Part shown: piece by piece, positions 2,743-58,537 of the stretch
How the letters are laid out: each line of letters begins with the position of its first letter
How positions within the stretch are numbered: position 1 is the first letter of the stretch
Source of the DNA: an uncultured Candidatus Saccharibacteria bacterium
GTDB lineage: Bacteria; Patescibacteriota; Minisyncoccia; Phycocordibacterales; DAORIS01
Length of the DNA stretch: 64,000 nucleotides
Direction of reading: 5' to 3'
Assembly: GCA_964644035.1 (NCBI GenBank)
Contig: CAZXUH010000001.1
Span: forward strand, 461,720 to 525,719
Translations under genes and position numbers: made by a program
The notes under the pieces: model-generated
Told to the model about the DNA's origin: nothing
What the model saw: the letters and a program-made list of their open reading frames with translations, nothing else
Databases searched by the model: none

Positions 2743-2794
2743 TCCATAGTAGAAGAGCCAGCTATATATGTCAAAGTTGCCCTATGGTCTGATA

Positions 2795-3355
2795 CTAGAG
2801 AGTGCCTGCGATTGCTGCTATAAGCAAAATACCAAGATAATTGAAAATAAATGTCAGCGGCATCATCATTCGAGTGCGTACTTTTGAAAATCCCATCATT
2901 GTCAAACCGATCTCGTCTGGTACTGGAGATATGATAAGTAATGCTCCGAGAAGAGGCATCAACCATCTGAAAATTCTCAATTTAAATATCGATAAAACCC
3001 TTTTATATTTTGGACCCTTTACTAAATCATAGAAATCTTCTGCCACAGAGTCGCGAAGAAAAAGAAAAAGCAATGTATCACCAATCATCGCGCCCACTGC
3101 TCCCCACAGTGCCACTATAAAGGGAGATGATGTTTCTGATATTTTTGCCAACGCTATAGCAGCTGGGGCAATGGTAAATGCCGAAGTGAAAAAGAGTCCA
3201 GCCAAAAAGCTACCAATAAAACGCACTTCCTCGGTAGCACTGACAATATTTTCCAATACACCTACTCTGAGTAGGAAGTAAGCAAATATAATGCTGAGCA
3301 CTACAAGAAAGAGATCTCTAAACGCTTTTGAATGAGAATGCTTTCGACGAGCCAT
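2795..3355 (-). CDS. DedA/YqaA-family (SNARE-associated-like) small membrane protein
   Basis: 186 aa polytopic protein. The G-rich helix followed by a PVPDE motif resembles E. coli YqaA (PVVGD). Confidence 0.4.
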   Translation of the reverse strand: MARRKHSHSKAFRDLFLVVLSIIFAYFLLRVGVLENIVSATEEVRFIGSFLAGLFFTSAFTIAPAAIALAKISETSSPFIVALWGAVGAMIGDTLLFLFLRDSVAEDFYDLVKGPKYKRVLSIFKLRIFRWLMPLLGALLIISPVPDEIGLTMMGFSKVRTRMMMPLTFIFNYLGILLIAAIAGTL

Positions 3356-3407
3356 ATATAGAAATTATATCAGATCGCAGAAAGTGCGTTGCAGTCACTC
3401 CGACAGA

Positions 3408-4010
3408 CTAATTGACTACCAATGTTCTGCGGATACTATCGAATTCGCTGATCACTGCCTGCTTATCGAACTCTCTGACCGTTCCCTCTTCATAATTTTC
3501 AAACACACCATAGTGAATGAGATATCTGACAGCAATGCATGGTTCAGAATTTGGAAGTGCATACACTGTTTCTTCGTATCGATTGCCTGCACCAGCATCG
3601 GTCACGGCAGCGACTGAGTACATGACGCCATTTTCTTCTACATCAAGAGCATCGGCCTGCTTATCTTCTAAGAACAAATCAGCAGTGCATGCTTCAGATT
3701 CTGTAAGACGCTCGACTGCAATATAGCTATCAGAAGAAAGATTGGTACCAGTAGCCATCGATTCTGGAATTCTAAATTTTACATCCCGATCTCCTTCATA
3801 GACTTTGTAACTATCAGGATATCCTTCCGACGAAGAAGCTACTATGCTTGGGAAATTGATAGAAAATCCCAATACCTGATTTTCATATTTCTGCGAAAGG
3901 TTATTTTCTTCTACCGTAGGTTCTTCAATCACTTCAGTACGCTTCGTATAGTGCCACACTCCAAGAGCAATCAGCACCAAGACGATCAGAGCGATAAATA
4001 ATTTTTTCAT
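3408..4010 (-). CDS. Hypothetical secreted/membrane-anchored protein
   Basis: N-terminal signal/anchor MKKLFIALIVLVLIALGVW, followed by an acidic soluble domain. Confidence 0.5.
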   Translation of the reverse strand: MKKLFIALIVLVLIALGVWHYTKRTEVIEEPTVEENNLSQKYENQVLGFSINFPSIVASSSEGYPDSYKVYEGDRDVKFRIPESMATGTNLSSDSYIAVERLTESEACTADLFLEDKQADALDVEENGVMYSVAAVTDAGAGNRYEETVYALPNSEPCIAVRYLIHYGVFENYEEGTVREFDKQAVISEFDSIRRTLVVN

Positions 4011-4094
4011 ATATTTTAATAATACGCTTTATATAAGCAAAGACCATCCAGTAGGACGGTCTTTGCTAGGATTACATCTTTGGCTTAATGATGG

Positions 4095-5297
4095 TTATCT
4101 ATTACGATTTCCATTACCATTGTTGCCTTTGAGTAGTTTTTTCCAATTCCACTTTTTATCGTGTTTCTTGTTGTCATTGTCCGGTGCATCACCCCATGAA
4201 TCTCGGGCATTACCGAAATCAATGTTTTGGATGACTGAACCGTTGCTGATCGTCAATGATGCATAGTCTGCAGTCATCTGATCGATACCTTCATTTTCAT
4301 GGTTGATCAATTCGACACTATATGTACCGTCGGCAAGAGTACCAAATGAATAGTAACCATTGCTGTCAGTGGTTACGCTCTTCAGAGCGCTACCCTGCCA
4401 GTTGGTACCTGTATAGAGTTTGACTGTCCAACCTTGAAAACCAGGTTCGCCGGCATTGCGTACGAGGTTTTTATTGACGTCACGATAGACAATACCGCTG
4501 ATCGAACCTGCTCCAGGATTTGGAGGGGTTGTCGTAGCAGGATTTGTTACCGTACCGCTGACGCAGGCAGTTGTTGCAGTGGTGTTGTTTGCATCACCTC
4601 CGTATACTGCTTGCCAATAATACGTTCCGGCAGTATTAAACTGAACAGAACTAGAATTTGGCACGACACCGTTGGTCACTGTTCGTGTACCAGCATCGAC
4701 TGCTCCTGTCGTACATGCACTGTTGTTGTAGACTCGGAAGACAACCGATCCACCAGCGCCGGCAGTCGCATTGCCCAATGTTGCAGTGCTAAAGACCGAT
4801 GAACCAGTCTGTATCGAACTACTTGAGAGTGCGAGTGAGAGAGTTGTGTTTTGAGCTGACGAAGTCAACATTGCACAACCAGAATTGGCTGGTGAATAGA
4901 CATCACCTTGACCATTGAAGTGAGCGAGATATGAGAGACCTGTACTTGGTACTGTTGTTGCATTTGATTCAGCAACACCGTTGACCAAAGCCACACCCGA
5001 CTGCATGACTCCAGTACCCGTACATGATGTGTTTGGGTAAAGAGTAAAGTCGACGGTACCTGTTGCCATAGAGTTGCTATCAGTCGACGAAGCGACCGAA
5101 GCCCTTGCATGGACCGATGTGCCGATTGCTGCAGACGTGATTACGTTGTGACTTGAGTCATGAACAACGTTGGTCATTGTTGGTGCAACGTCAGCACGCA
5201 CAATAGCTGCCGCGAAGAGCAGTGAGCCAAGTGCGAGAGGTGTGATGAGTAAGAGTGCGTATCTACGGGCTTTATCCGAATAGTTACGTGTATACAT
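4095..5297 (-). CDS. Thr/Ser-rich cell-surface protein with C-terminal SdrD-B/Cna-B-like domain
   Basis: Signal peptide and long T/S/G/N-rich region. C-terminal ISGIVYRDVNKN...SNGYYSF...DGTYSVEL is an SdrD B-like fold motif. Basic K/N-rich tail. Confidence 0.55.
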   Translation of the reverse strand: MYTRNYSDKARRYALLLITPLALGSLLFAAAIVRADVAPTMTNVVHDSSHNVITSAAIGTSVHARASVASSTDSNSMATGTVDFTLYPNTSCTGTGVMQSGVALVNGVAESNATTVPSTGLSYLAHFNGQGDVYSPANSGCAMLTSSAQNTTLSLALSSSSIQTGSSVFSTATLGNATAGAGGSVVFRVYNNSACTTGAVDAGTRTVTNGVVPNSSSVQFNTAGTYYWQAVYGGDANNTTATTACVSGTVTNPATTTPPNPGAGSISGIVYRDVNKNLVRNAGEPGFQGWTVKLYTGTNWQGSALKSVTTDSNGYYSFGTLADGTYSVELINHENEGIDQMTADYASLTISNGSVIQNIDFGNARDSWGDAPDNDNKKHDKKWNWKKLLKGNNGNGNRNR

Positions 5298-5480
5298 GTT
5301 TTTTATAAGTTACTTTTAAGTTAAACCAGCTTTAAATGTTAAGTGAGTTATTGGTAATTGACCCTACATATGTATTCTACATCATTAGGGCCTTATAATT
5401 TGTGACGAGTGAACAGGCTTAGTCTGACGCTAAAAAGGCGTTAAGACATCATTAAAAATATGTGTCAATTTTAGATAGTT

Positions 5481-6269
5481 CTACGAAGTGTGCTTTCTAA
5501 AGAGATATCCTGAGAGAGGAATTGCAATAACGACAACTGCTGCACACCAGATAAGTGCGATAGTGGCATGATTGCCTACTGGAGTGCCTACCATATATCC
5601 GCGAATGGCTTCAATAACGTGTGTCACTGGCTGATTTTCTGCAAAGATTCTAAGTACTTTTGGCATACCTGCTGTCGGTACGAAGGCACTACTTGCAAAG
5701 GTAAGAGGAAAGACAAGCATGAAGCCCATCCACTGCACCGCTTCGACTGATTTTGCGAGAAGCCCCATGATTGCCGACGCCCACGAAAGTGCAAACGTAA
5801 AGGCAAGCAATATGCCAAGTGCCATGAGCCATTCGGTAAATGTTGCTGTTGGCCTAAACCCTACAAGCAAAGCGACAAGGATCATGACTGTCGAAGAAAT
5901 AGTGTTTCGCACCAGATCGGCAGTGACGTGACCAATAAGTACCGTTGAACTGACCATTGGGAGTGATTTGAATCGATCAATAATTCCCCTCTTAAGATCA
6001 GTTGCGACGTTAAGCGAAGTTGTGAGTGCTCCAAATGCCGCTGTCTGGACCAAAATACCAGCCACGAGAAAGTTTACATATGTTGTGCCACCTGTATCGA
6101 TTGCTCCACCAAAAACGTATCGGAAGAGAAGCATAAACATGATCGGCTGAATAGCGAGAGAAAGAAGCTGATCAAGATTTTTGAAAATATGCTTAAGACT
6201 TCGTACGATCAATACATACGTATCACTGAAAAACCAATAGAGTTGCTTGTGTTTAGACATTTTTTTCAT
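5481..6269 (-). CDS. ABC-2 type transporter permease
   Basis: 262 aa polytopic protein directly downstream of and overlapping the ABC ATPase. Confidence 0.7.
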   Translation of the reverse strand: MKKMSKHKQLYWFFSDTYVLIVRSLKHIFKNLDQLLSLAIQPIMFMLLFRYVFGGAIDTGGTTYVNFLVAGILVQTAAFGALTTSLNVATDLKRGIIDRFKSLPMVSSTVLIGHVTADLVRNTISSTVMILVALLVGFRPTATFTEWLMALGILLAFTFALSWASAIMGLLAKSVEAVQWMGFMLVFPLTFASSAFVPTAGMPKVLRIFAENQPVTHVIEAIRGYMVGTPVGNHATIALIWCAAVVVIAIPLSGYLFRKHTS

Positions 6270-7221
6270 TTATATGAGACTCGCCTTCGACTTCATGACC
6301 AGTAAGATTGAGAAATACATCATCAAGTGTCGGCTTGTGCAGTGACATACTCTCAATATTTATTCCCGCTTTTTCCAAGAGGTCAAGAATATCTTTGACC
6401 TGCTTTACGCCGGCTTCTATTGGAATACTAAGACTCTGTTCTTCTTCGACTATTGCCGAACCAGAAATATTGACCGCTACTTCTGCTTTCTTGAGATCTT
6501 CTGTTTTTGTAATGATAAGTTCGAGACGATTTTTTCCTACACGACTCTTGAGTTCGTCGGCTGTACCCTCAGCAATGACTTTGCCGTGATCGATAACAGC
6601 GATCCTATCGGCAAGCTTATCTGCTTCTTCGAGATACTGCGTAGTAAGAAGTATTGTTGCCCCTTCGCTCATGAGCTGCTGAATGACTTTCCACATGGCC
6701 AAGCGGCTGCGTGGATCGAGACCTGTTGTCGGTTCATCGAGAAAAATGATCGGCGGAGTAGCTACAAGACTTGCAGCCAAGTCGAGTCGGCGGCGCATAC
6801 CACCAGAGTACGTTTTTGCAGCGCGGCCAGCTGCATCTTCGAGATCAAACTGTTTGAGAAGTTCTGTTGCTCGGCGTTTGCTCTCTTCTTTACCCAAGTG
6901 ATACAAGCGTCCCATCATTTCCAAATTTTCTTTTCCAGTCAAATACTCATCAATAGCCGCATACTGTCCTGTGAGACCAATAATACGCCTGACATCGTCT
7001 GATTGCTTCACCACATCGAAACCTCCAATATGCGCCTGACCATTGTCAGGTTTGAGAAGTGTACTCAAAATACGCACAGTCGTGGTTTTACCAGCACCGT
7101 TTGGTCCAAGAAGAGCCAACATTGTGCCCTTTTTGATCGTAAGATTGATTCCTTCGAGGACTTTGACCTTCTTAAAGGACTTCGTGAGACCTTTTATTAC
7201 AATTGCATCATCGTTTGACAT
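6253..7221 (-). CDS. ABC transporter ATP-binding protein (DrrA-like, with C-terminal extension)
   Basis: Walker A GPNGAGKTT, signature YSGGMRRRLDLA, Walker B IFLDEPT. Confidence 0.85.
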   Translation of the reverse strand: MSNDDAIVIKGLTKSFKKVKVLEGINLTIKKGTMLALLGPNGAGKTTTVRILSTLLKPDNGQAHIGGFDVVKQSDDVRRIIGLTGQYAAIDEYLTGKENLEMMGRLYHLGKEESKRRATELLKQFDLEDAAGRAAKTYSGGMRRRLDLAASLVATPPIIFLDEPTTGLDPRSRLAMWKVIQQLMSEGATILLTTQYLEEADKLADRIAVIDHGKVIAEGTADELKSRVGKNRLELIITKTEDLKKAEVAVNISGSAIVEEEQSLSIPIEAGVKQVKDILDLLEKAGINIESMSLHKPTLDDVFLNLTGHEVEGESHINEKNV

Positions 7222-7249
7222 GTGGAGCCTATTCTATCGCAAATATTTT

Positions 7250-7522
7250 TTATGACAAATCTTTTGTATCGTCTTTTGGTCTTCCCCACTGCCATCGTGG
7301 TGATTCACCAGTTTTATAACAAATTCTGAGTAGTGTAATAGTAAGAAGTGTTATAGGCAGAAAAAAAGTAAACATCACTTCTTTTGGAGAAGAATTTTCA
7401 TCGATCGTTAGTGAAAATAAGAATACCAGAGCGACATATGACCACATCACTACCCACCCTTCCCAAGTAGCCGGATACCATCCCCAGCCATACCACTTTC
7501 TTTTAAACCACAGTTTTTTCAT
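7250..7522 (-). CDS. Small Trp-rich membrane protein, hypothetical
   Basis: 90 aa with two hydrophobic helices and a W-rich N-terminus. Confidence 0.4.
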   Translation of the reverse strand: MKKLWFKRKWYGWGWYPATWEGWVVMWSYVALVFLFSLTIDENSSPKEVMFTFFLPITLLTITLLRICYKTGESPRWQWGRPKDDTKDLS

Positions 7523-7532
7523 ATCTTTATTA

Positions 7533-7570
7533 TAACAAAAAGAAAAGGGCGACTCCGAAGCGTCGCCCTT
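7533..7570 (-). terminator. Rho-independent terminator (GGGCGAC-TCCGAAGC-GTCGCCC, then a T-run on the minus strand)
   Basis: Perfect 7-bp stem followed by TTTTCTTTTT on the minus strand, downstream of ogt. Confidence 0.55.
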
Positions 7571-7669
7571 AGTCCGAGGATGCGTACGTGTTAGCGATCC
7601 CGCAACCTCTAACGGTTACTGGTGCTATCAACACCTGTAACCACTCCTTCCTCCTATATTTATAACACT

Positions 7670-8176
7670 CTAGTTTGCATTAGACAATTTTCTTTCCCAA
7701 GCCAATAGTGCTTCTTTGCGTTTTGTTCCCCAGCGATACCCGCCAATCTTACCTGTAGAGGTTAGTACTCTATGGCATGGTATGAGAAATGCTATTGCGT
7801 TCTTCCCGCAGGCACTTCCGACTGCTCGCACCGCCTTTGGCGATCCGACTTTCTTTGCAATTTCTGCATACGTAGAAGTTTTACCAAATAGAATACCTAA
7901 AAGTGCTTTCCAGACTTTTCTCTGAAAGTCAGTCCCCTGCATGATCAGTTTTTTAGAATATATACTTTTCTTTGTACTAAAAATATCTTTTATATATTTT
8001 TTAGTTTCAGTATCTCTCCTCACTATTTCTGCTTCAGGCCAAATCTTTTTACTATTATTGATTGCAGTGGATTTTTTATTCGGATCGATAAAAGACAAAT
8101 GGATCACTTTTTGTTTTTCAATTGCTATGAGAGCAAGTCCAAAAGGAGTTTTGTGTATGCCGTAGGTTATTCGCAT
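7670..8176 (-). CDS. ogt: Methylated-DNA--protein-cysteine methyltransferase (O6-alkylguanine-DNA alkyltransferase)
   Basis: Active-site motif PCHRV, plus the FQRKVW...YAEIA HTH region typical of Ogt/Ada-C. Confidence 0.85.
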   Translation of the reverse strand: MRITYGIHKTPFGLALIAIEKQKVIHLSFIDPNKKSTAINNSKKIWPEAEIVRRDTETKKYIKDIFSTKKSIYSKKLIMQGTDFQRKVWKALLGILFGKTSTYAEIAKKVGSPKAVRAVGSACGKNAIAFLIPCHRVLTSTGKIGGYRWGTKRKEALLAWERKLSNAN

Positions 8177-8202
8177 AAGAATGCATTGTATCAGATTCTT
8201 TT

Positions 8203-8243
8203 TATTAAAATAAAAATCACTTGCTCTACGTTGAGCAAGTGAA
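8203..8243 (-). terminator. Rho-independent terminator downstream of the ABC-F gene
   Basis: CACTTGCTC...GAGCAAGTG hairpin followed by TTTTTATTTT on the minus strand. Confidence 0.5.
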
Positions 8244-8316
8244 CGGGCCAGTCCGATACTGTGGGTGTAGCCCTTCCACCATCCTGGTGGTCGCTAACTA
8301 CATTACACCCCTTTAC

Positions 8317-9774
8317 TTATTTCTCCAAATCTAAAACTTCATCGATACGAATCTTGGCCACAAATTCTGGGACGTGACTGACAAGAATCATTGCTCCTTG
8401 GTACGTATTGAGGGCTTCGGCTATAACCGGCAAATGACGGAAGTTAATATGATTGGTCGGTTCATCGAGAATAAGCAGTCCTGGCTTTTGCAGTACAAGA
8501 CGGGCAAATGCTACCAAACCTTTTTGACCTTCAGAGAGATCTCCTATTTTTGTTTTAATCAGCTCGCCTGTAATAAGAAAGCCTGCAGCAGTTGAACGCA
8601 AAGTTTCTTCGTGAGGCTTTTCCATTGCACTCCAGAGAGAATCATAGACAGTGTCTTCAAAATTGAGCGTCGAGAAATCCTGACGATAATACCCTACTCG
8701 CACACCAGAGCTTATAACAGCGCCGGCAGATGTGCTGAGGGCAAGTGACTCAAGCAACGTGCTTTTGCCAATACCATTGGGACCCTTGAGCAATAGATGT
8801 CGATTTCTTTTCAAAGATATTTTTGTTTTTCTGCTGACTGGCTTATGAGTCTTTGGGTTTATCGTCGTAAAAGAATTGATAGAAAGTATTTCCCCGACAA
8901 ATTCTGGCTGAGCTGGAATACTAAAAGGTCTAATCGTCTTATCTTCTCTACGTACATCAACTTTTTCTTCTTCAAGCTCTTCGGCTTTTTCTCTCATGCA
9001 TTTTGCTACGAGACGCATTTGACCGCCTTTGTTGGCAAAAAAGTTTGCCTTGTCTTTGTTTTCCTGAATTTCTTTTGCCAACTGAGCATTTTTCCTATTT
9101 TCTTTTTCAATACGAGCAGAAATTTCTTCGAGTAAGTCGAAATAGTTGCCGACATACTGTTCTACTTTTCTCGTGAAGACATCCAGATACAAGACGCCGT
9201 CGGTAAAAGAGTTTAGGAAATCAGCATCGTGAGAAATCACCAAGCATGTCTTTTTATAATTCTTAATGAAGTCTGTCAGATGAGCGATGCCGGCTTTGTC
9301 GAGATTGTTTGTCGGTTCATCGAGCAAAAGCACATCGGGATCTTGTATGAGCGCTGAAGCAAGCAAAAGTCGTGCTTGCTGTCCTCCAGAAAATGTTTTG
9401 ATAATTCTATCGTGCGGAGCGTGGAGATTGACGACATCGAGCACTGCATCGATTTTGGGATCGATATCATAGATTTTTGTACTAAAATTCTTTTCGAAAA
9501 ATTCCCTGACAGTCAACGTCATTTCATCACGAGGAATGACCTGTCGAGAGATAGCAATCGTCGTACCACGTCCAATATGAATCTCACCATCCTCCGGAGA
9601 GAGCTCTTGAGTGATCATTTTGAAAATCGTGCTCTTACCAGCGCCGTTTTGGCCCATGATCGTGACCTTGGAACCCTTGCGCACCGAAAAACTCACCTCT
9701 TGTAGGATGGGTTTGTTCTCTCCGTACTCAAACGATACATTGTCGAATCTGACGATAACCTCTTCTTTAGCCAT
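8317..9774 (-). CDS. ABC-F family ATPase (two tandem ABC domains, no TM; translation/antibiotic-resistance type)
   Basis: Two Walker A motifs (GQNGAGKST, GPNGIGKST), two ABC signatures, and a charged linker between the domains. Start taken at the MAKEE ATG; an alternative ATG exists at 9792. Confidence 0.8.
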   Translation of the reverse strand: MAKEEVIVRFDNVSFEYGENKPILQEVSFSVRKGSKVTIMGQNGAGKSTIFKMITQELSPEDGEIHIGRGTTIAISRQVIPRDEMTLTVREFFEKNFSTKIYDIDPKIDAVLDVVNLHAPHDRIIKTFSGGQQARLLLASALIQDPDVLLLDEPTNNLDKAGIAHLTDFIKNYKKTCLVISHDADFLNSFTDGVLYLDVFTRKVEQYVGNYFDLLEEISARIEKENRKNAQLAKEIQENKDKANFFANKGGQMRLVAKCMREKAEELEEEKVDVRREDKTIRPFSIPAQPEFVGEILSINSFTTINPKTHKPVSRKTKISLKRNRHLLLKGPNGIGKSTLLESLALSTSAGAVISSGVRVGYYRQDFSTLNFEDTVYDSLWSAMEKPHEETLRSTAAGFLITGELIKTKIGDLSEGQKGLVAFARLVLQKPGLLILDEPTNHINFRHLPVIAEALNTYQGAMILVSHVPEFVAKIRIDEVLDLEK

Positions 9775-15140: not shown

Positions 15141-15857
15141 TTATTTTGAGAAATTATCAGCTGCGATTCGGCGATTGTCGACTCTCTTATCGCTTTCTAT
15201 ATTTCCGTCTTTGATTCTAATCGTTCTCTTGGCATGTTCGGCTGTCGATGTTTCGTGAGTAATAAGCAAGACAGTGTGTCCCTCATCATTGAGTTTCTGA
15301 ATAATTTCCATAACAGCCTTGCCTGATTTTGAATCAAGGTTGCCTGTTGGTTCATCGGCAAAAATAATACTTGGATTGTTTACCAACGCTCTTGCAATAG
15401 CAACACGCTGCTTTTCTCCACCAGAGAGTTGTGCTGGTTCAAAATCAATACGATGCGAGAGTCCTACTGCATCGATAGCTTTTCGAGCACGTTCATTCCA
15501 CTCTGATTCTGGAACATCAGAATATAGAAGTGGCAGTTTTACGTTTTCCAATACTGACGTACGAGCCAAGAGATTGAATGCTTGGAAAATAAAACCGAGC
15601 TTATTGTTGCGAATCTTAGCTACTTCTTCTTTGCTATATGTTGAGACTTCTTTGCCTTCAAAAATATATTCTCCACCCGTGTGAAGATCGAGAAAACCAA
15701 GAATCTGTAGCAAAGTAGATTTGCCCGAACCAGATGGTCCCATTACTGCCAAGAATTCTCCTTTTTCAAGAGTGAAATTGATACCGTGAAGTACGGGAGT
15801 TTCCGTACCTTCGCCATAATACGTTTTCTTAAGATTTTTTAATTCCAGAAGAGCCAT
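15141..15857 (-). CDS. ABC transporter ATP-binding protein (MacB/LolD type)
   Basis: Walker A GPSGSGKST, signature LSGGEKQRVAIARA, Walker B IIFADEPTGNLD. Confidence 0.85.
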   Translation of the reverse strand: MALLELKNLKKTYYGEGTETPVLHGINFTLEKGEFLAVMGPSGSGKSTLLQILGFLDLHTGGEYIFEGKEVSTYSKEEVAKIRNNKLGFIFQAFNLLARTSVLENVKLPLLYSDVPESEWNERARKAIDAVGLSHRIDFEPAQLSGGEKQRVAIARALVNNPSIIFADEPTGNLDSKSGKAVMEIIQKLNDEGHTVLLITHETSTAEHAKRTIRIKDGNIESDKRVDNRRIAADNFSK

Positions 15858-26543: not shown

Positions 26544-27224
26544 TTAGAGGACATACCTTCCCTGCTGATCGTCCCTGATAACGCGACCATTCTCCATTGT
26601 CAGCACTCTTCGACCTAAATTGTCGATCACACCCTTGTTGTGAGTAGTGAGAACGATTGTCGTACCTAAGTCATTGATCTTTTTAAAGATCTGCACGATT
26701 TCGTACGTACTAATAGGATCAAGGTTGCCTGTTGGTTCGTCAGCAATGATAAGATCGGGCTGATTGACGATAGCTCGAGCAATAGCGACACGCTGACGCT
26801 CTCCTCCCGAGAGCTGACTTGGGAAATTGTGTCCTTTGCTACCAAGATCAACGAGTTCAAGTACATGCGGTACGTCGGCAGCTATTTCTTCATCGCTTCT
26901 GCCAGCCACTTCCATGGCAAAAGCAATGTTTTCATAGGCGGTTTTATTGGGCAAAAGCCTGAAGTCCTGAAAGACTACACCTATCTTACGTCGAAGATTG
27001 TTGATTTCCTTTCTGCGGAGTTTGTGAATATTGGCTGAATGAAAAAAGACTCCCCCAGAGGTAGGTCGGTCTTCTGCCAATATCATTTTGAGAAGGGTCG
27101 TCTTGCCAGCACCGGATTGTCCGACGACAGAAACGAATTCTTTGGGTTCTATATTGAAGCTGACGTTATCGAGAGCAACCGCATCCGCGCCATAAATCTT
27201 CGATACTTTGTCGAAATAGATCAT
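26544..27224 (-). CDS. ftsE: Cell-division ATP-binding protein FtsE
   Basis: Walker A GQSGAGKTT, LSGGERQRVAIARA, IIADEPTGNLD. Sits in an ftsE-ftsX arrangement. Confidence 0.9.
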   Translation of the reverse strand: MIYFDKVSKIYGADAVALDNVSFNIEPKEFVSVVGQSGAGKTTLLKMILAEDRPTSGGVFFHSANIHKLRRKEINNLRRKIGVVFQDFRLLPNKTAYENIAFAMEVAGRSDEEIAADVPHVLELVDLGSKGHNFPSQLSGGERQRVAIARAIVNQPDLIIADEPTGNLDPISTYEIVQIFKKINDLGTTIVLTTHNKGVIDNLGRRVLTMENGRVIRDDQQGRYVL

Positions 27225-28617: not shown

Positions 28618-28693
28618 TGGAGCCACCTCGCAGGATCGAACTGCGGACCCCCGCTTTACGAAAGCGGTGCTCTACCAACTGAGCTAAGGTGGC
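28618..28693 (-). tRNA. tRNA-Thr (anticodon CGT), CCA encoded
   Basis: Reverse-complement GCCACCTTAGCTCAGTTGGTAGAGC...TTCGTAA...GGTGGCTCCA forms a perfect cloverleaf. Confidence 0.85.
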
Positions 28694-32984: not shown

Positions 32985-33057
32985 GTCAGGGTAGCTCAGT
33001 CGGTAGAGCACAGGACTCATAAGCCTGGGGTCGTGGGTTCGATCCCCACCCCTGACA
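32985..33057 (+). tRNA. tRNA with CAT anticodon (elongator Met or Ile2)
   Basis: GTCAGGGTAGCTCAGTCGGTAGAGCACAGGACTCATAAGCCTGG...CCCTGACA forms a cloverleaf with one mismatch at 31:39. Confidence 0.75.
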
Positions 33058-40189: not shown

Positions 40190-40831
40190 TTAGTTGCAAG
40201 TATCCACCACTTCGATCTGACCTGAGCTCAAAATATTGACCTGTTTTGTCTTAGCGGTCTGTGAAAGCAAACAGATAGTTGCTTGGTTGAAATGCGTGCC
40301 ATTGGCAATAATAATCGCATCTGGATTTGGCCGCATAAAGGTCACGCTCATAGCTGTAATAGAAGGAGATGTATCGTCAGAACACTCTATATCGGCAACA
40401 CCTGAGTCTGGTATGACGCAGAAATTTTGTATCGTATTGCCCGCGGGGAAACTAAAGGTGCGCATAATCGTATCGGATGAATCGTAGCCTTCTATACCTC
40501 CTGCCCCACCAACAATATTGTTGGTATCAGCGAAGAAACTGTAGCGAGCATTGTTTGAAGCAGATAGATAGATTCCATAAGGATTATTGAAAGAACCAAG
40601 ACCATCCACATCCTTGCTACCAAGACCATATGTCTGAGCTTCGCGTATTGAGAGAGCAACGTCGTCGGCCAAACCGGAGAGAATAATATTGTTTCCAAAC
40701 TTTCTTTGATTGGCGACGAGTACTGTCGTCAAAATAGAAAAGATAGCCATGACGATAAGGAGTTCGAGCAAGCTAAATCCAAAAGAGCTTTTTTTAAATA
40801 ACTTTAAAATATGTTTTGAAATATGTTTCAT
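40190..40831 (-). CDS. Type IV minor pilin / pseudopilin (GspH/FimT-like)
   Basis: FGFSLLELLIVMAIFSIL is a prepilin motif. Confidence 0.75.
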   Translation of the reverse strand: MKHISKHILKLFKKSSFGFSLLELLIVMAIFSILTTVLVANQRKFGNNIILSGLADDVALSIREAQTYGLGSKDVDGLGSFNNPYGIYLSASNNARYSFFADTNNIVGGAGGIEGYDSSDTIMRTFSFPAGNTIQNFCVIPDSGVADIECSDDTSPSITAMSVTFMRPNPDAIIIANGTHFNQATICLLSQTAKTKQVNILSSGQIEVVDTCN

Positions 40832-41595
40832 CGTGTGAAAGAAAATAGCATCAATATGTCTTCAATATGTATATTAGCAAAAAATACGAAGGCTGTACCT
40901 ATCACCAAAAACGGTGCAAACGGTATTTCACTTTTCATGTGCAGATTGCCAAGCCGGAAAACCATGACCAAAATACCAATAAGCGCCCCGATCCAAAATG
41001 CGAGCGTGATAGCTGCATAGCCCATATTCATTCCAAGCATCCAGCCCATGGCCAAGCCAAACTTAGCATCGCCAAATCCCATCCACTTCCCTTTTGAAAT
41101 GAGCCAGATAAACAGAAATGGAAATGCTACTGCCGGTCCAGCGACCAAAAGCGATATGGCTTCGCTTGGTATGCGGACAAAAAGCATATTCACAAACAGA
41201 CTGAGAAATGCAAAAGAAAATACCAAACCATCGGGAATAATTTTGTGCTTGAGATCATATACAAAAATCGCTACCAGCAATGACCATACGATTGCATAGT
41301 ATGGAGTACCGATAGTAAATCCAAAAATCTCATATATTCCGACAAAAAGAGCTCCAGTAGTAAACTCTACCAATGGATATTGCCATGATAATCGGCTATT
41401 GCAGCCCGTACAGCGGCCACCCTGAAAGAAGAAACTAAACAATGGTATAAGTTCGTACCAAGCGAGCGTTTTGCCGCAGGAGAGGCATTTTGAGCGGCCA
41501 GTGATTTTCCAACCTGTGTTGTATCTATAGATAACTACATTGAGAAAGCTGCCTATGCATAGACCGATCAGAAAAATAAAGAGTTCAACGATCAT
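40828..41595 (-). CDS. pilD: Prepilin peptidase (A24 family)
   Basis: N-terminal Cys box (CLSCGK...CTGC), polytopic, catalytic Asp region GFGDAKF. Length 255 aa. Confidence 0.85.
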   Translation of the reverse strand: MIVELFIFLIGLCIGSFLNVVIYRYNTGWKITGRSKCLSCGKTLAWYELIPLFSFFFQGGRCTGCNSRLSWQYPLVEFTTGALFVGIYEIFGFTIGTPYYAIVWSLLVAIFVYDLKHKIIPDGLVFSFAFLSLFVNMLFVRIPSEAISLLVAGPAVAFPFLFIWLISKGKWMGFGDAKFGLAMGWMLGMNMGYAAITLAFWIGALIGILVMVFRLGNLHMKSEIPFAPFLVIGTAFVFFANIHIEDILMLFSFTR

Positions 41596-41652
41596 GATGC
41601 AATAATAGTAGCATATATTTTAGTTGACCTACTGGATACCTCCTCCCCTAGC

Positions 41653-41739
41653 CCCTCCTCTAAAGAGGAGGGGAACACTAAAAGGTCTTGTGCTTCAGAG
41701 TCCTCCCTCCTCATTCTGAGGAGGGATTGAGGGAGGAGG
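41653..41739 (+). repeat. GA/CT-rich palindromic repeat element, copy 1
   Basis: 22-bp perfect palindrome CCCCTCCTCTAAAGAGGAGGGG plus a 65-nt tail containing a second inverted repeat CCTCCCTCCTCA...TGAGGAGGGATTGAGGGAGGAGG. Ends 4 nt before the pilin stop. Confidence 0.7.
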
Positions 41740-41743
41740 CATA

Positions 41744-42163
41744 TCACCTACTCACCTTAAAATTGTTTGCCGGAGTGCCGCTATTGCAACTATCTGATGT
41801 CGCTACGGAAGTACTATTTGCATTTTCAAGCGTCGTACCAAGACAATACGAAAGTCTGAGACCACTAGCATTGGTTGTCGGATTGTAGCTATATGCATCC
41901 CCTTGTGGTCCAACAGGCAATGTCGGCACAAAACCTTCTGTCACAAGCTGCATAAGATTAGCTGGATACTGCTTACTTTCACTGTCTGAGTTCTGAAACG
42001 ACGCTTCAAGTGCTATTTGAACCTGCTTAATATCATTGAGTCTTCTTGCATCACGTGCTCTCTGTCGAGCTTCATTGCCCCGAAACATTACTACACCAGA
42101 AAGAACACCGATAATAGCTACTGCAATAAGCAATTCAATAAGAGTAAATCCTTTTTTATTCAT
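41744..42163 (-). CDS. pilA: Type IV pilin (PilA-like)
   Basis: MNKKGFTLIELLIAVAIIGVLSGV is the canonical type IVa prepilin leader. Start moved to 42163 (GAAGGT SD). Confidence 0.85.
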   Translation of the reverse strand: MNKKGFTLIELLIAVAIIGVLSGVVMFRGNEARQRARDARRLNDIKQVQIALEASFQNSDSESKQYPANLMQLVTEGFVPTLPVGPQGDAYSYNPTTNASGLRLSYCLGTTLENANSTSVATSDSCNSGTPANNFKVSR

Positions 42164-42184
42164 ACATATATTGTACCTTCTACC

Positions 42185-42218
42185 TAGACAAAACAAAACA
42201 CCGCTTTTGGCGGTGTTT
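42185..42218 (-). terminator. Rho-independent terminator between the two pilin genes
   Basis: AACACCGC-loop-GCGGTGTT hairpin followed by TTTTGTTTTG on the minus strand. Confidence 0.55.
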
Positions 42219-42253
42219 TTATCTGCAATGAGTAGAGAAAATAGAAAAGCTCT

Positions 42254-42676
42254 CTAGCTACAAGATACTGCGGTACCTGAAGGATTAGCCGTTGTGGCAA
42301 CTGCATTACCCTTTGAGTCAACACACCAATATGATGCAGTATTACTCTTCAACTGGGCTGATAGTACCCAAGCACCAGCAACATCTTTACATACAGTCGC
42401 ACCTGATCCAGCCAACCTTGAGCCTGTGGCCATCTGGTCAATACCACCACCAGTTGAACTGTTATAACAAACGCCTAAGTAACTCTGGCTATTTGAATCA
42501 TAGTAGAGTTCAGCCTGTGCACGTGCATTGTTAACGTTAGACTTAATGGCTGCATCAGAACCCTTTGCGCGAGCAGAGTTGAGTGATGCAAGCACAACCG
42601 CTGATAGGATACCGATGATAGCGATGACCACCAAGAGTTCAATCAGGGTGAAACCTTTTCTAAAAGAAGTTTTCAT
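42254..42676 (-). CDS. pilA: Type IV pilin (PilA-like), second copy
   Basis: MKTSFRKGFTLIELLVVIAIIGILSAV. C-terminal Cys pair for the D-region disulfide. Confidence 0.85.
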   Translation of the reverse strand: MKTSFRKGFTLIELLVVIAIIGILSAVVLASLNSARAKGSDAAIKSNVNNARAQAELYYDSNSQSYLGVCYNSSTGGGIDQMATGSRLAGSGATVCKDVAGAWVLSAQLKSNTASYWCVDSKGNAVATTANPSGTAVSCS

Positions 42677-42832
42677 TTATAAATATATTATCTTATAACT
42701 ATTAAACATCGCGTCCCTACGTTTGGCCATTATCAGCGGCTAAATAAAGGCACGACTGCTTACACGTAATTATATACCGCCTATTGAAGGCGTAAATGGG
42801 TCGTGTGGATAACCAATCACCTTCTCCCCTTT

Positions 42833-42854
42833 CCCCTCCTCTAAAGAGGAGGGG
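42833..42854 (+). repeat. Palindromic repeat, copy 2 (palindrome only)
   Basis: Exact CCCCTCCTCTAAAGAGGAGGGG followed by AAC, as in copy 1. Confidence 0.7.
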
Positions 42855-42918
42855 AACTTTATGTTTTATTGAGGTTATTTTTAGTACTTCTGCATACAAC
42901 GAGAGTCATACTCCTTAC

Positions 42919-43341
42919 ATGAAGAAAATAATAAACAAAAATGAGCTGCTTTTACGCAGACGAGACCTAAGAAAATCAATGACTCACCAAGAGATACTTC
43001 TATGGGAGCATTTTAGACGCAAGCAAATGGGCTATCGCATCCATCGACAATACAGTATCGGATCATTTGTTGTGGATTTTTATTGCCCAAAAGCAAAGCT
43101 TATTATAGAAATCGATGGGTATCACCATAATAAACCAGAAGAAATAGAATACGATACTTTTCGAACAAAATTCTTTGAAGAACTTGGCCTCAATGTAATA
43201 CGTTTTACTAATCAACAAATTAATACCAATCTTGTAAAAGTTCTTACAGCGATTAAAGCTAAACTCCTCTCCTCCAAAGAGGAGAGAGCTTCTACACCTC
43301 CTCCCTCAATCCCTCCTCATCTTGAGGAGGGAGGACTCTGA
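42919..43341 (+). CDS. DUF559 endonuclease-domain protein (Vsr/restriction-endonuclease-like fold)
   Basis: SMTHQEILLWEHFRRKQMGYRIHRQYSIGSFVVDFYCPKAKLIIEIDGYHH...RTKFFEELGLNVIRFTNQQI matches the DUF559 consensus. The 3' end reads into repeat copy 3. Confidence 0.7.
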   Translation: MKKIINKNELLLRRRDLRKSMTHQEILLWEHFRRKQMGYRIHRQYSIGSFVVDFYCPKAKLIIEIDGYHHNKPEEIEYDTFRTKFFEELGLNVIRFTNQQINTNLVKVLTAIKAKLLSSKEERASTPPPSIPPHLEEGGL

Positions 43342-43383
43342 AGTACAGGACCTTTAGTGTTCCCCTCCTCTATAGAGGAGGGG
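43265..43383 (-). repeat. Palindromic repeat, copy 3 (inverted relative to copy 1) plus a degenerate extra palindrome
   Basis: Reverse-complement of 43297..43383 aligns almost base-for-base with copy 1. The palindrome variant is CCCCTCCTCTATAGAGGAGGGG. An extra CTCTCCTCCAAAGAGGAGAG sits at 43265-43289. Confidence 0.65.
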
Positions 43384-43421
43384 TCAGGGGAGGAGGTGTA
43401 AAAAGGAGGTGGCCAGGGTGG

Positions 43422-44630
43422 TTAAAACGCCGACGCAATATTGTAAATAGGCACCAAAACTGCCGCAAGGAGAATACCAACCCCGACACCCAAAAGCACA
43501 ATCATCACTGGTTCGATAAGACTGACCAGTGTATCTACAGCATTGAGCACTTCGCGCTGATAAAAGGTCGACATAGTCTTGAGAATCTTACCAAGCTCAC
43601 CAGTTTCTTCACCGACTTTGACCATTTGAATGAATATGCCTGGGAATTGTGGATATCTTGAGAATACGTCGGAAACCGATGCTCCAGCTTTGACTGCTTC
43701 GATACTATCGAGCAAGATTTTCTGATAGGTATAACTCTCAACAACTGTCGAAGTGATTTCGAGTGTGCGAAGCATTGGTATACCAGCCACGATCATCGTG
43801 TTCATGTTGTCGGCAATACGAGAAAGGAAAAGTTTTCTGTACAAATCACCGATAAAAGGTATTTTGAGTTTCATTTCATCGAACCATGCCTTGCCGGAAT
43901 CGCTTTTTATATATCGGAAGAAAAGAAAACCACAGATCACTAATGCGCCGAGCAAGAAGAATCCATAATTGACCAAAAATGCACTGGCCCCAAGGATAAT
44001 CTTGGTATAAATCGGTATTTCCTGACCAGAATCGGTCAAAATCGTGGCGATCTTAGGAATGACCATCGTGAACATCAGGATCATGACAGTAATGAACGTC
44101 GCGACGATAAATGCCGGATAAATAAAGGCATTGCGAGCCTTCGACGTCACTTCAAATGATCGGTCGAGATAGTCAGCAAGATAGACAAAGGTCTCATTGA
44201 GCTTACCTGATTCTTCACCAGCTCTCACCATGTTTACATAGAAAAGAGAAAATGTTTTTGGATGTTTACCCAAAGCTGCAGAGATAGAACTTCCACCCTG
44301 CAAGTCATCGGCTACGACCGTCAAAATAGTACGTAGTTGTGGCTGTTCTGTCTCAGCAGCCAAAAGTCTGAACACTCGAAGCGCTGAAACTTGCGATTCG
44401 AAAAGGATCGATATCTGACGAGAAAGAATAACGACATCTTTATTGCTAACACGAGAAAAGAAATTGAGATTTCTCTTAAGAATCGAGCCTTCTTCTTGGA
44501 GTGGCTTGATCGAGGTAAGTATCAATCCCCTTCTTTGAAGAGAATTGATGGCAATATCCATCGTGATCGCATCGATCGATCCTTCTTTTGATGTGCCGTC
44601 TGATTCGAGTGTCTTGTATCTAAAAATCAT
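43422..44630 (-). CDS. pilC: Type IV pilus platform protein PilC (GspF family)
   Basis: 402 aa. Two GspF repeats, three TM segments, typical PilC organisation. Confidence 0.85.
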   Translation of the reverse strand: MIFRYKTLESDGTSKEGSIDAITMDIAINSLQRRGLILTSIKPLQEEGSILKRNLNFFSRVSNKDVVILSRQISILFESQVSALRVFRLLAAETEQPQLRTILTVVADDLQGGSSISAALGKHPKTFSLFYVNMVRAGEESGKLNETFVYLADYLDRSFEVTSKARNAFIYPAFIVATFITVMILMFTMVIPKIATILTDSGQEIPIYTKIILGASAFLVNYGFFLLGALVICGFLFFRYIKSDSGKAWFDEMKLKIPFIGDLYRKLFLSRIADNMNTMIVAGIPMLRTLEITSTVVESYTYQKILLDSIEAVKAGASVSDVFSRYPQFPGIFIQMVKVGEETGELGKILKTMSTFYQREVLNAVDTLVSLIEPVMIVLLGVGVGILLAAVLVPIYNIASAF

Positions 44631-45733: not shown

Positions 45734-46141
45734 CTACAAAGCCTCCGCAATATAGCGCTTGCCTGCCATTATTTCTCTCACTCTGGTTACTACTTCTGAA
45801 GGAATCGTCGTGGCCTTGATAATATAACCATCGACACCGATATCTTTTGCGATTTTTATATCTGGAGATTCAGATTGATTGGTAAGCATGACAATTTTTA
45901 CCTTTGGAAGAAGATTTTCAGTCTTGAGTTTCCTTACAAGTTCGATACCGTCCATGCCTGGCATAACAATATCAACAAGAAGTACATCTGGAGCGTAGCC
46001 GGCTTTTATTTTGTCATAGGCAAGCATTGCATTGTCCGCAGTCTCAATAGCAAATCCACTGTGGTCGAGCTTACGCGCATACATATTAAGTAGGAATTTA
46101 TCATCATCGACGAGCAGTACTTTTTTCTTATCTGCGTCCAT
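45734..46141 (-). CDS. Stand-alone CheY-like response-regulator receiver (PilH/PilG-like)
   Basis: KKVLLVDDDKFLLN...DVLLVDIVMPGMDGIEL...KIVMLT carries the phospho-acceptor Asp and a conserved Lys. Confidence 0.8.
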   Translation of the reverse strand: MDADKKKVLLVDDDKFLLNMYARKLDHSGFAIETADNAMLAYDKIKAGYAPDVLLVDIVMPGMDGIELVRKLKTENLLPKVKIVMLTNQSESPDIKIAKDIGVDGYIIKATTIPSEVVTRVREIMAGKRYIAEAL

Positions 46142-58464: not shown

Positions 58465-58537
58465 GCGCGTGTAGCTCAGTTGGTAGAGCAGCCGTCTTAT
58501 ACACGGCCGGTCCCTGGTTCGAGTCCAGGCACGCGCA
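58465..58537 (+). tRNA. tRNA-Ile (anticodon TAT, decoding AUA)
   Basis: GCGCGTGTAGCTCAGTTGGTAGAGCAGCCGTCTTATACACGGC...CACGCGCA. Anticodon stem is perfect, loop is CU-UAU-AC with A37. Confidence 0.75.

Follow-up and report, generated by a model that had tools for sequence, protein, structure and literature searches.

Paired hairpin repeats and a DUF559 nuclease gene in the type IV pilus operon of an uncultured Candidatus Saccharibacteria bacterium

The locus and its insertions

The window, by which we mean the whole stretch of 64,000 nucleotides that was analysed (64 kb), comes from an uncultured Candidatus Saccharibacteria bacterium and contains a type IV pilus operon with hairpin repeats and a DUF559 gene between its genes. 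The original prediction had named the genes correctly, as PilD, two N-methyl pilins, DUF559 (PF04480), and PilC. The features of the region are the following.

40828-44630, minus strand: host genes, with pilD at 40828-41595, pilin genes at 41744-42163 and 42254-42676, and pilC at 43422-44630
41625-41633, plus strand: left copy (TGACCTACT) of a direct repeat, of which the right copy (TCACCTACT) is at 41744-41752; 8/9 identical
41638-41739, no strand assigned: copy 1, a lone inverted module pair located after the pilin stop codon and before the pilD start, with module 1 made up of pyrimidine tract ACCTCCTCCCC (41638-41648), TAG, and a hairpin (41652-41673), and module 2 of a hairpin (41704-41726), TTG, and purine tract AGGGAGGAGG (41730-41739)
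42195-42219, minus strand: intrinsic terminator after the major pilin gene, AAAACACCGC-loop-GCGGTGTTTT
42769-42796, minus strand: major pilin promoter-like site, TTTACG-16-TATAAT, conserved with the closest relative, L122
42813-43421, no strand assigned: segment missing from L122, bounded by the pilC stop codon and the conserved block of the pilin promoter
42819-42856, plus strand: copy 2, a single module of pyrimidine tract ACCTTCTCCCC and hairpin TTCCCCTCCTCTAAAGAGGAGGGGAA
42919-43341, plus strand: gene for a predicted DUF559 (Vsr-like PD-(D/E)XK) nuclease, 140 codons, with its conserved core at 42919-43263
43264-43288, plus strand: extra hairpin CTCCTCTCCTCCAAAGAGGAGAGAG where the DUF559 core ends
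43296-43398, no strand assigned: copy 3, a second inverted module pair, reversed relative to copy 1; its left part is a pyrimidine tract and hairpin (43296-43332) followed by a spacer, and its right part a hairpin (43362-43383), TCA, and purine tract GGGGAGGAGG (43387-43396)

The 22-nt palindrome CCCCTCCTCTAAAGAGGAGGGG lies at 41652-41673 and 42833-42854, with a TATA variant at 43362-43383. These are the three copies originally predicted, the first of which starts at 41652 and not at 41653. Allowing up to three mismatches, no further match was found in the 64-kb window, and the number expected by chance was 0.00 (100 shuffles). The palindrome belongs to a basic module of ~36 nt, composed of a pyrimidine tract, 3-4 nt, and a hairpin whose 5′ arm is pyrimidine and whose 3′ arm is purine; its third tract, 3 nt off, mirrors one of the hairpin arms. 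There are five modules, namely the two of the lone inverted pair, the single module, and the two of the second pair, all inside 1.8 kb and none at other places in the window. The single module and the second pair flank an intact DUF559 gene, whose stop codon (43339-43341) falls within copy 3. The two modules of copy 1 are separated by a 30-nt spacer, and copy 2 is just the first ~40 nt of the longer unit, forming with the far end of copy 3 a 40-nt inverted repeat (90%) around the DUF559 gene, with copy 2 on the left.

Most of the predicted anatomy was borne out. A second inverted repeat had been noticed in two copies, and the hairpin TCCCTCCTCA-N3-TGAGGAGGGA is indeed present in both longer units, at 41704-41726 in copy 1 and 43310-43332 in copy 3. 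Copies 1 and 3, described as about 90% alike in opposite orientation, are 92-93% complementary over ~102 nt, and copy 1 does stop 4 nt before the pilin stop codon (copy end 41739, stop codon 41744-41746). Folding, which had been suggested as a check, showed much more stable folding of the units than of shuffled sequence (z = -4.3 to -8.5). An Rfam search of the region returned just sub-threshold microRNA look-alikes, as long hairpins give, and no known RNA family. The extra hairpin at 43264-43288 was absent from the original prediction; its type and position match the hairpin that ends the DUF559 ORF of a Doudnabacteria locus (L083), where the protein ends ...ILSSLQEER* and the window reads ...LLSSKEER....

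The DUF559 start codon was set by alignment with homologues. The product matches Pfam PF04480 with E = 1e-29 and 102.6 bits (gathering cut-off 20.6), and in profile comparisons its closest solved relative is PDB 3hrl (E = 4e-32), with a match to I-Bth0305I (3r3p) at E = 7e-4. All invariant residues are present (R43, Q44, D53, C56, L61, E64, D66, G67, H70, D79, R95, and N98), including those of the motif DF.C ... E.DG..H, of which D53, C56, E64, D66, G67, and H70 are invariant in 15 sequences; the protein is predicted to be a small Vsr-like PD-(D/E)XK nuclease. From 43264 the ORF crosses repeat sequence for ~26 codons, close to the ~25 repeat-derived codons first estimated. The G + C content of the core is 33.6% vs. 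42.8% in the window. An exact look-up of the 140-aa product gave no record, because gene callers took a later start (104 aa), and no DUF559 homologue above 55% identity was found, so there is no sister cassette for boundary comparison. We also considered a defence system, for which PADLOC gave only weak partial nuclease-domain matches, and the YcjD-type NCBIfam equivalog, for which the score was far under the cut-off; both were rejected. No cytosine methyltransferase gene adjoins the DUF559 gene at the locus, and none of the genes at the locus matches Y1_Tnp (HUH transposase), the flanked gene being DUF559.

Relatives L122, L124, and L126 have the same pilus gene order. In relatives with PilC 78%, 69%, and 67% identical, the same operon lacks the DUF559 gene, and no such hairpins were found in their operons over ~13 kb. 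This is the syntenic comparison that the original prediction had called for, and it shows neither the lone unit nor the DUF559 cassette in the relatives. The two intergenic regions measure 114 nt and 30 nt in L122, and 745 nt and 148 nt in the window. In the longer one, L122 reads TAA-TGAC-TTATCCACA, and the window has 609 nt instead of those 4 nt (intergenic alignment by eye). In the shorter one, copy 1 is missing in L122, and the 118-nt size difference agrees with a 110-nt insert plus 9 nt at copy 1. Since the relatives have the same operon without the repeats and the gene, both are insertions and, judged from these alignments, two insertions after the split from the nearest relatives found are shown. 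One of them placed a lone pair between the second pilin gene and pilD, and the other a cassette, in which the DUF559 gene is flanked by one module and one pair, between pilC and the pilin promoter. Insertion of the gene into the spacer of one pair was considered and rejected, as the orientation of the modules on either side is that of the outer halves of two adjacent pairs and not the one expected of a single split pair.

Each copy of the direct repeat (TGACCTACT/TCACCTACT) lies 4 nt outside copy 1, and the repeat may be a target-site duplication. Among 33 Sphingomonadales pairs there was no excess of flanking direct repeats over shuffled flank pairs, so that the one around copy 1 may also be due to chance. 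The major pilin promoter-like site is intact, 17 nt from the insertion edge, and promoter and terminator are both intact despite the insertions; the pilus genes are probably just passively affected. The terminator at 42195-42219 is an ordinary one and serves as an example of the form that terminators take in this genome.

The repeat class and its recurrence beside DUF559 genes

The window modules fit the BoxC / PIT / TM intrastrand-triplex class, repeats that have been known since 1992, form triplexes, and mark unstable loci. Published work assigns them neither a function, an origin, nor an enzyme. The modules agree with the TM motif definition (Holder et al. 2015, PMC4666352), and we applied the ITxF definition, i.e., a pyrimidine arm, a complementary purine arm, and a third tract mirroring the purine arm, with stems of 6-15 nt, at most one mismatch, and loops of 1-6 nt. 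In the four modules of copies 1 and 3, the arms measure 10 nt, the first loop 2-5 nt, and the second loop 3 nt, with 9/10 valid purine-motif triplets (G*G / A*A); copy 2 is weaker, with ~8/10 triplets by eye. A single module strand is predicted to be able to fold as either a hairpin or an intrastrand triplex. Class membership formed no part of the original prediction's reading.

The layout shared with BoxC / PIT / TM (Bergler 1992; Hoyne and Maher 2000, 2002; PMC4666352) is a pyrimidine arm, a 2-6-nt loop, a purine arm, and then a 3-nt loop and a mirror purine tract. In both, the elements are intergenic and differ in presence or absence between relatives. Two module types are paired in inverted orientation, type A (TTA loop) with type B (CCG loop) in E. 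coli and CTA-loop with TTG-loop modules in copies 1 and 3 of the window, and one E. coli copy adjoins the DUF559 gene ycjD. Copies of the window's palindrome are dispersed over several loci per genome in Sphingomonadales; the 64-kb window has a single locus. Unlike the published hosts, which are proteobacteria or cyanobacteria, the window host is a Paceibacteria-type candidate-phyla bacterium, and the arms differ (CCCCTCCTCT/AGAGGAGGGG in the window, CCCTCNCCC/GGGNGAGGG in TM-ECO). The TM-ECO consensus CCCTCNCCC-N3-6-GGGNGAGGG-N3-GGGNGAGGG is not matched, the window arms being CCCCTCCTCT and TCCCTCCTCA. On sequence grounds, the window repeat is of the same structural class as TM-ECO and of a different sequence family from that of E. 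coli.

The identical 22-mer was found in at least 119 genome stretches, mostly of Sphingomonadales with several loci per genome, and in addition in two Doudnabacteria. Because this identity came from an exact-sequence search in a small sequence space, it is no evidence of transfer or of shared specificity; horizontal transfer between Sphingomonadales and candidate-phyla bacteria was rejected, the proteins being just 30-40% identical. At these loci, the distance from one hairpin to the next clusters at 34-50 nt and 68-142 nt, and the outer tracts read CACCACCCCC...GGGGGTGGTG. In Sphingomonadales the palindrome is a dispersed, multi-copy paired repeat in which some DUF559 genes are embedded, and a lone pair homologous to the window unit is found at one Doudnabacteria locus (L074). 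A DUF559 homologue lies within 500 nt of the palindrome in 14 of the 119 matches listed, and in 105 there is none. The DUF559-linked loci have one or two hairpins 20-100 nt upstream of the aligned core, and in most of them a further hairpin overlaps or closely trails the stop codon, with ORFs ending ...HHPPTPSSEEEGE*. The window locus shows the same geometry.

The association was also seen in 80 metagenomic DUF559 loci picked blind to repeats. A best hairpin stem of at least 9 (one mismatch allowed) was present upstream in 63% of flanks and downstream in 69%, compared to 10% of control windows. Pyrimidine/purine hairpins with a perfect stem of at least 8 occurred at 6.3 and 7.8/kb in the flanking 100 nt and at 0.08/kb beyond 1 kb, i.e., they were 75-95 times denser in the 100 nt beside DUF559 than more than 1 kb away. 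Other hairpins were not comparably enriched (0-1.3/kb in all bins, 0.47/kb further away). At least one pyrimidine/purine hairpin lay within 150 nt in 64 of the 80 metagenomic loci; among more distant DUF559 loci, taken from viral contigs, the number was 32 of 80. A mirror third strand accompanied 64% of 149 DUF559-flanking hairpins vs. 21% in the direct-orientation control, and the hairpin type tracks the DUF559 protein clade. The favoured polarity is hairpin-purine tract, gene, pyrimidine tract-hairpin. In the Doudnabacteria locus L083 and in metagenome loci L207 and L155, the start codon is preceded by the purine tract at the distance of a Shine-Dalgarno sequence; the upstream module of the window is in the minority orientation and supplies no ribosome-binding site.

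In E. coli, a degenerate motif covers the stop codon of ycjD, and a TM-ECO copy lies slightly less than 170 nt downstream; motif #9 of Holder et al. 2015 (PMC4666352, Table S2) is placed between fabI and ycjD. Between two motifs lies a relic-like partial copy of the ycjD 3′ end. There are 17-30 motifs per at most one or two ycjD copies. In E. coli genomes sampled at even spacing, the median number of TM places was 19 in genomes with ycjD and 4.5 in those without, and some genomes without ycjD keep 12-20. The gene is found in phylogroups A, B1, and C, and B2, D, E, F, and G have eefRABCD at that site; since the difference in TM count follows phylogroup, we take the counts as consistent with a ycjD link and not as proof. 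Holder et al. 2015 (PMC4666352) did not find the motif with mobile elements, and neither DUF559 nor an endonuclease is mentioned in published BoxC / PIT / TM work (PMC4666352). We found no paper in the open-access literature linking such repeats to DUF559. The repeat class was already known; the DUF559 link is, as far as we found, not described.

Readings of the repeat-nuclease association

We give a probability of roughly 0.6 to the reading that the region is a BoxC/PIT-type repeat family with a habitual nuclease partner, in a partnership like that of REPINs and RAYTs whose mechanism we infer. Two different modules in inverted orientation make up the ~102-nt pair, the counterpart of a REPIN. 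The DUF559 protein would recognise the folded or extruded module and nick beside it, repair copying from another copy would spread pairs, and at times the gene, to new intergenic sites, and by-products of the process would include local insertion, deletion, and instability. The logic would be that of REP/REPIN with a RAYT transposase, on a different enzyme fold. We know of no strand-transfer activity in PD-(D/E)XK nucleases, so mobilisation would have to go via host repair. The original prediction of a REP- or MITE-like selfish repeat tied to DUF559 is upheld in this part by the insertions, the Sphingomonadales repeats, and the flanked DUF559 genes; its proposal of pilin inversion is not supported.

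REP/REPIN elements with RAYT transposases, reportedly the subject of work by Nunvar in 2010 and by Bertels and Rainey in 2011, have a related organisation. Both systems have short palindromic extragenic repeats, an inverted pair as the mobile-looking unit, and many lone copies alongside a nuclease gene that is itself flanked by repeats and present once or a few times; in both, the repeat type tracks the enzyme clade and genomes without the gene have fewer repeats. This layout is found here, with the DUF559 gene between inverted repeats and lone inverted pairs elsewhere in the window and in Sphingomonadales. In contrast to RAYT, an HUH Y1 transposase of IS200/IS605 type, the window enzyme is a Vsr-like PD-(D/E)XK protein of ~115-140 aa, and the modules lack the GTAG or CGTC tag of REPs and have a third mirror tract that REPs lack; for the window repeats, mobilisation is something we infer.

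MITEs (Correia, ERIC, and RUP) resemble the window units in their length of ~100 nt, terminal inverted repeats, strong secondary structure, and intergenic position near genes. They differ in that the window has no related DDE-transposase insertion sequence and a nuclease as the partner gene, and in that no consistent target-site duplication was found in the 33 Sphingomonadales pairs; overall, terminal inverted repeats are present and a transposase is absent at the locus. Homing endonuclease I-Bth0305I has been grouped with Vsr and DUF559 (PMC3424549). It (PDB 3r3p) shares a related catalytic fold and the appearance of a small selfish gene breaking conserved gene order, but the window gene is not part of an intron or an intein, has structured repeats on both sides, and encodes no extra DNA-binding domain. 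Lastly, Caulobacter VsrA has a DUF559 domain and a proposed role in very-short-patch repair (PMC12907096), and both it and E. coli Vsr are of the same superfamily, whereas the window gene adjoins no cytosine methyltransferase gene and is embedded in repeats.

An unlikely alternative is that the DUF559 gene alone is mobile, as a free-standing, homing-endonuclease-like cassette with the modules as both its ends and its expression signals (ribosome-binding site, stop codon, and terminator), and that lone modules and pairs are scars of former cassettes from which the gene was deleted. It would suit the purine tracts that are Shine-Dalgarno sequences in L083, L207, and L155, the tight embedding of a gene with its stop codon in or just past the downstream hairpin, the relic-like partial ycjD 3′ end between two E. 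coli motifs, the kinship of DUF559 with I-Bth0305I, and the rarity of pyrimidine/purine hairpins far from DUF559 (0.08/kb in the 80 metagenomic loci). The lone pairs, however, are regular, with two module types and a conserved 34-50 nt spacing, and not random deletion end-points. They also far outnumber the genes (105/119 listed stretches have no DUF559 within 500 nt), the 17-30 motifs of E. coli are set against at most one or two ycjD copies, and in the window the spacer of the lone pair equals that of the gene-adjacent pair and has no similarity to the gene.

Still less probable is that the hairpins are regulators of the pilus operon (terminators, mRNA stabilisers, or attenuators) and that DUF559 is a Vsr-like mismatch-repair nuclease placed there by chance. 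REP-like hairpins are able to stabilise upstream mRNA. Copy 1 stands directly after a pilin gene and before pilD, a consensus scan flagged copy 2 and the extra hairpin as terminator-like, and very-short-patch repair has been proposed for the DUF559 protein VsrA of Caulobacter. Against this, the same operon runs without such elements in relatives, the real terminators of this genome have a different form (A-tract, mixed G + C stem, T-tract), the hairpins of copies 1 and 3 are followed by no T-run, no cytosine methyltransferase gene adjoins the DUF559 gene, and the hairpin-DUF559 association is seen in many unrelated gene contexts.

The idea, raised in the original prediction, that copies 1 and 3 form a switch inverting the 1.7-kb segment with both pilin genes and DUF559, for pilin phase or antigenic variation, draws on the two ~102-nt inverted copies (92-93% identical) that bracket the segment and is very improbable, as no gene for an invertase or a recombinase lies at the locus, two sequencing runs, each assembled on its own, gave contigs that align to the window gap-free with a single mismatch and hence in the same orientation, the repeats are generic family members present in unrelated loci, and flipping would part the pilin genes from nothing they need, because the segment carries their own promoter and terminator.

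The partnership of repeat and nuclease, which we prefer, leads to a broader and more tentative proposal, to which we give somewhat less than even odds. DUF559 nucleases, including YcjD of E. coli, may be the missing cognate enzymes of BoxC/PIT repeats, recognising the module's non-B DNA structure to generate, spread, or maintain the repeats. If true, this would be a second REPIN-RAYT-like system, on a PD-(D/E)XK fold and widespread over bacterial phyla, and would account for the genomic instability reported at triplex-motif sites.

DUF559 is, to our knowledge, a very large family of small nucleases for which hardly any function has been assigned. Its pairing with the repeats recurs across bacteria including E. 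coli, and the steady physical association offers a candidate explanation for both, so that two unexplained features become jointly testable; E. coli K-12, which has the ycjD and TM-ECO pairing, is open to simple genetics and biochemistry. In addition, such elements enter the compact genomes of candidate phyla, here beside the pilin promoter of a type IV pilus operon. The repeats also explain an annotation artefact, in which DUF559 ORFs and small “hypothetical” ORFs are often extended into translated repeat, giving tails such as PSSEEEG, PPLKRRG, and LEEGG.

Repeat units in the pilus operon

The repeat in the type IV pilus operon, whose genes the original prediction named correctly, is real, and its three palindrome copies, the last a TATA variant, lie where they had been read, except that the first starts at 41652 rather than 41653. 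Elsewhere in the 64 kb the palindrome is absent even when three mismatches are allowed, and shuffled sequence gave 0 matches.

Repeat features in the window
41652-41673 and 42833-42854: palindrome CCCCTCCTCTAAAGAGGAGGGG
43362-43383: palindrome, TATA variant
41638-41739: copy 1, ~102 nt
42819-42856: copy 2, just the first ~40 nt of the unit
43296-43398: copy 3, ~102 nt
42919-43341, plus strand: DUF559 gene
43264-43288: extra hairpin CTCCTCTCCTCCAAAGAGGAGAGAG at the end of the DUF559 core
Module 1 (hairpin bracketed): ACCTCCTCCCC-TAG-[CCCCTCCTCT-AA-AGAGGAGGGG]
Module 2: [TCCCTCCTCA-TTC-TGAGGAGGGA]-TTG-AGGGAGGAGG

Each ~102-nt unit consists of two unlike modules in inverted orientation. In both, the outer tract is the mirror of the neighbouring hairpin arm, so that a single strand carries a pyrimidine arm, a purine arm, a 3-nt loop and a mirror purine tract, with predicted G*G or A*A triplets at 9 of 10 positions per module. 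Copies 1 and 3, described earlier as ~90% identical in opposite orientation, are mutually inverted and 92-93% complementary over ~102 nt; copy 1 does end 4 nt short of the pilin stop codon, and the proposed folding check showed every unit to fold far better than shuffled sequence. Copy 2 and the far end of copy 3 form a 40-nt inverted repeat (90%) enclosing the DUF559 gene. A 40-51-aa ORF (41592-41747, minus strand; L120 12917-13039) is a translation of copy 1 alone. The public assembly annotates it as a gene, an artefact of the sort that gene callers tend to produce in these stop-poor CT/GA-rich repeats.

The module belongs to an already known structural class, named BoxC, PIT (potential intrastrand triplex) or TM (triplex motif). 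BoxC was noted in the envM (fabI) paper of Bergler et al., 1992, was recognized as a potential intrastrand triplex element by Hoyne and Maher, 2000, and the class was surveyed by Holder et al. 2015 (PMC4666352). In that survey, the E. coli family TM-ECO had 3610 occurrences in 262 proteobacterial genomes, 23 of them in K-12, where types A and B are inverted pairs; it formed triplexes in vitro, and E. coli strains varied more around its sites than around control sites (PMC4666352). Holder et al. gave the class no function and saw no association with mobile elements; endonucleases and ycjD are absent from their text, and their Table S2 locates motif #9 between fabI and ycjD (PMC4666352). Our search of the open-access literature, covering DUF559, ycjD and similar terms, turned up no paper tying DUF559 to these repeats.

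Insertion into the operon

Judged by its PilC homologues, the organism is one of the Paceibacteria-type candidate-phyla bacteria. Two sequencing runs yielded contigs that align to the window without gaps and with a single mismatch. The same operon in three relatives (L122, L124 and L126; PilC identity 78%, 69% and 67%) contains neither a DUF559 gene nor any such hairpin. From pilC stop to pilin start there are 114 nt in L122 and 745 nt in the window, and from pilin stop to pilD start 30 and 148 nt. The cassette of copy 2, DUF559 gene and copy 3 (42813-43421) stands in place of 4 nt, immediately upstream of a pilin promoter block (TTATCCACA...TATATAAT...GATGTTTAATAGTTATAAGATAAT) common to the window and L122. 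This comparison, which the original prediction had proposed, shows that the lone unit and the cassette are insertions.

In L126 (GCA_030855525.1, 7790-11536), genes for a 799-aa family-2 glycosyltransferase and a methyltransferase lie between both pilin genes, which makes the pilin region a recurrent insertion site; the L126 pilin may be glycosylated. A stand-alone response-regulator receiver gene between pilB and pilT (45734-46141, minus strand) is kept in all three relatives examined. Elsewhere in the window are paralogous ABC-type ATPase segments (2196-9659, 15333-15431 and 26718-27127; diverged direct repeats, 62-81% identity) and mutually similar, tRNA-like repeats (28633-28686, 32991-33045 and 58471-58522).

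DUF559 genes and their hairpins

The DUF559 protein matches Pfam PF04480 (1e-29) and retains all residues invariant among 15 aligned homologues, whose profile matches PDB 3hrl (4e-32) and the homing endonuclease I-Bth0305I (7e-4). As had been noticed, the ORF ends in read-through of the repeat (its final ~26 codons); G+C is 33.6% in the core vs 42.8% in the window.

A scan of species-representative genomes with the 22-nt palindrome matched at least 119 stretches; among the 119 matches listed, two come from Doudnabacteria and almost all from Sphingomonadales, where a genome has several loci. The Sphingomonadales context, CACCACCCCC-AAC-[hairpin]-spacer-[hairpin]-GTT-GGGGGTGGTG, has the paired architecture of the window. 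Spacings between neighbouring hairpins in the matches listed cluster at 34-50 nt and 68-142 nt, with a third cluster (410-431 nt) of hairpins flanking a DUF559 gene on both sides. A DUF559 homologue lies within 500 nt in 14 of these 119 matches; such loci have one or two hairpins just upstream of the aligned core and, mostly, another overlapping or soon after the stop codon. Of the Doudnabacteria loci, L074 has a lone pair homologous to the window unit, and L083 has a cassette in which the ribosome-binding site is the purine tract and the ORF ends within a hairpin like that at 43264-43288. The L083 contig has another, more distant DUF559 gene (2721-2951); behind it comes a pyrimidine-rich tail of a different kind, translated PPLTPPCSKGED, which may be another repeat type of that genome. 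Nine Sphingomonadales loci (L001, L009, L014, L023, L029, L040, L045, L055 and L103) have a longer variant with an extra conserved block preceding the palindrome (CACCACCCCGCTGCGACTA, short hairpin, AAGTCTCGCTG). The sole exact palindrome in the viral contig collection is at 11905-11926 of L209 (IMG/VR contig 3300036987_000529).

Starting from the protein, we took 80 metagenomic DUF559 loci, selected blind to repeats.

Hairpins around DUF559 genes
Best stem of at least 9 (one mismatch allowed): upstream flanks 63%, downstream 69%, control windows 10%
Pyrimidine/purine hairpins (perfect stem of at least 8) per kb: adjacent 100 nt, 6.3 upstream and 7.8 downstream; beyond 1 kb, 0.08
Other hairpins per kb: 0-1.3 per 100-nt bin within 1.5 kb; beyond 1 kb, 0.47
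At least one pyrimidine/purine hairpin within 150 nt: 64/80 metagenomic loci; 32/80 more distant DUF559 loci of viral contigs

The favoured polarity is hairpin-purine tract, gene, pyrimidine tract-hairpin; protein clade tracks hairpin type, and a mirror third tract accompanies 64% of DUF559-flanking hairpins vs 21% in the direct-orientation control. DUF559 genes are habitually embedded in such repeats in many lineages. The MITE/REP-like element linked with DUF559 that had been suggested is borne out as to insertion, repeat family and DUF559 neighbourhood; its nuclease-driven spread we infer: acting on the modules, the nuclease would drive their spread or turnover much as in REPIN-RAYT systems. 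This reading is limited by the lack of any target-site duplication in 33 Sphingomonadales pairs. The main rival is that the gene cassette alone is mobile and lone pairs are its relics. A regulatory role of the hairpins in the pilus operon, where the genome's ordinary terminators (42195-42219) are quite unlike them, and an inversion switch, as envisaged for the copies flanking the pilin locus, are unlikely and have little or no support.

E. coli ycjD and TM-ECO

In E. coli, a degenerate motif spans the ycjD stop codon and is followed by a partial duplicate of the ycjD 3' end and then a TM-ECO copy; in K-12 (L208 11040-11840, fabI-ycjD-sapF) the duplicate between the degenerate motif and the full TM-ECO is ~55 nt. 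Across 5426 complete genomes the median number of TM-ECO places is 17, and ycjD, nearly always single-copy, is present in 3378. It occurs in phylogroups A, B1 and C, and eefRABCD occupies the same site in others (PMC12817139). In an evenly spaced sample, the median number of TM places was 19 with ycjD (n=37) vs 4.5 without (n=22), a difference that follows phylogroup and is thus consistent with the proposed action of the nuclease on the modules rather than independent proof of it.
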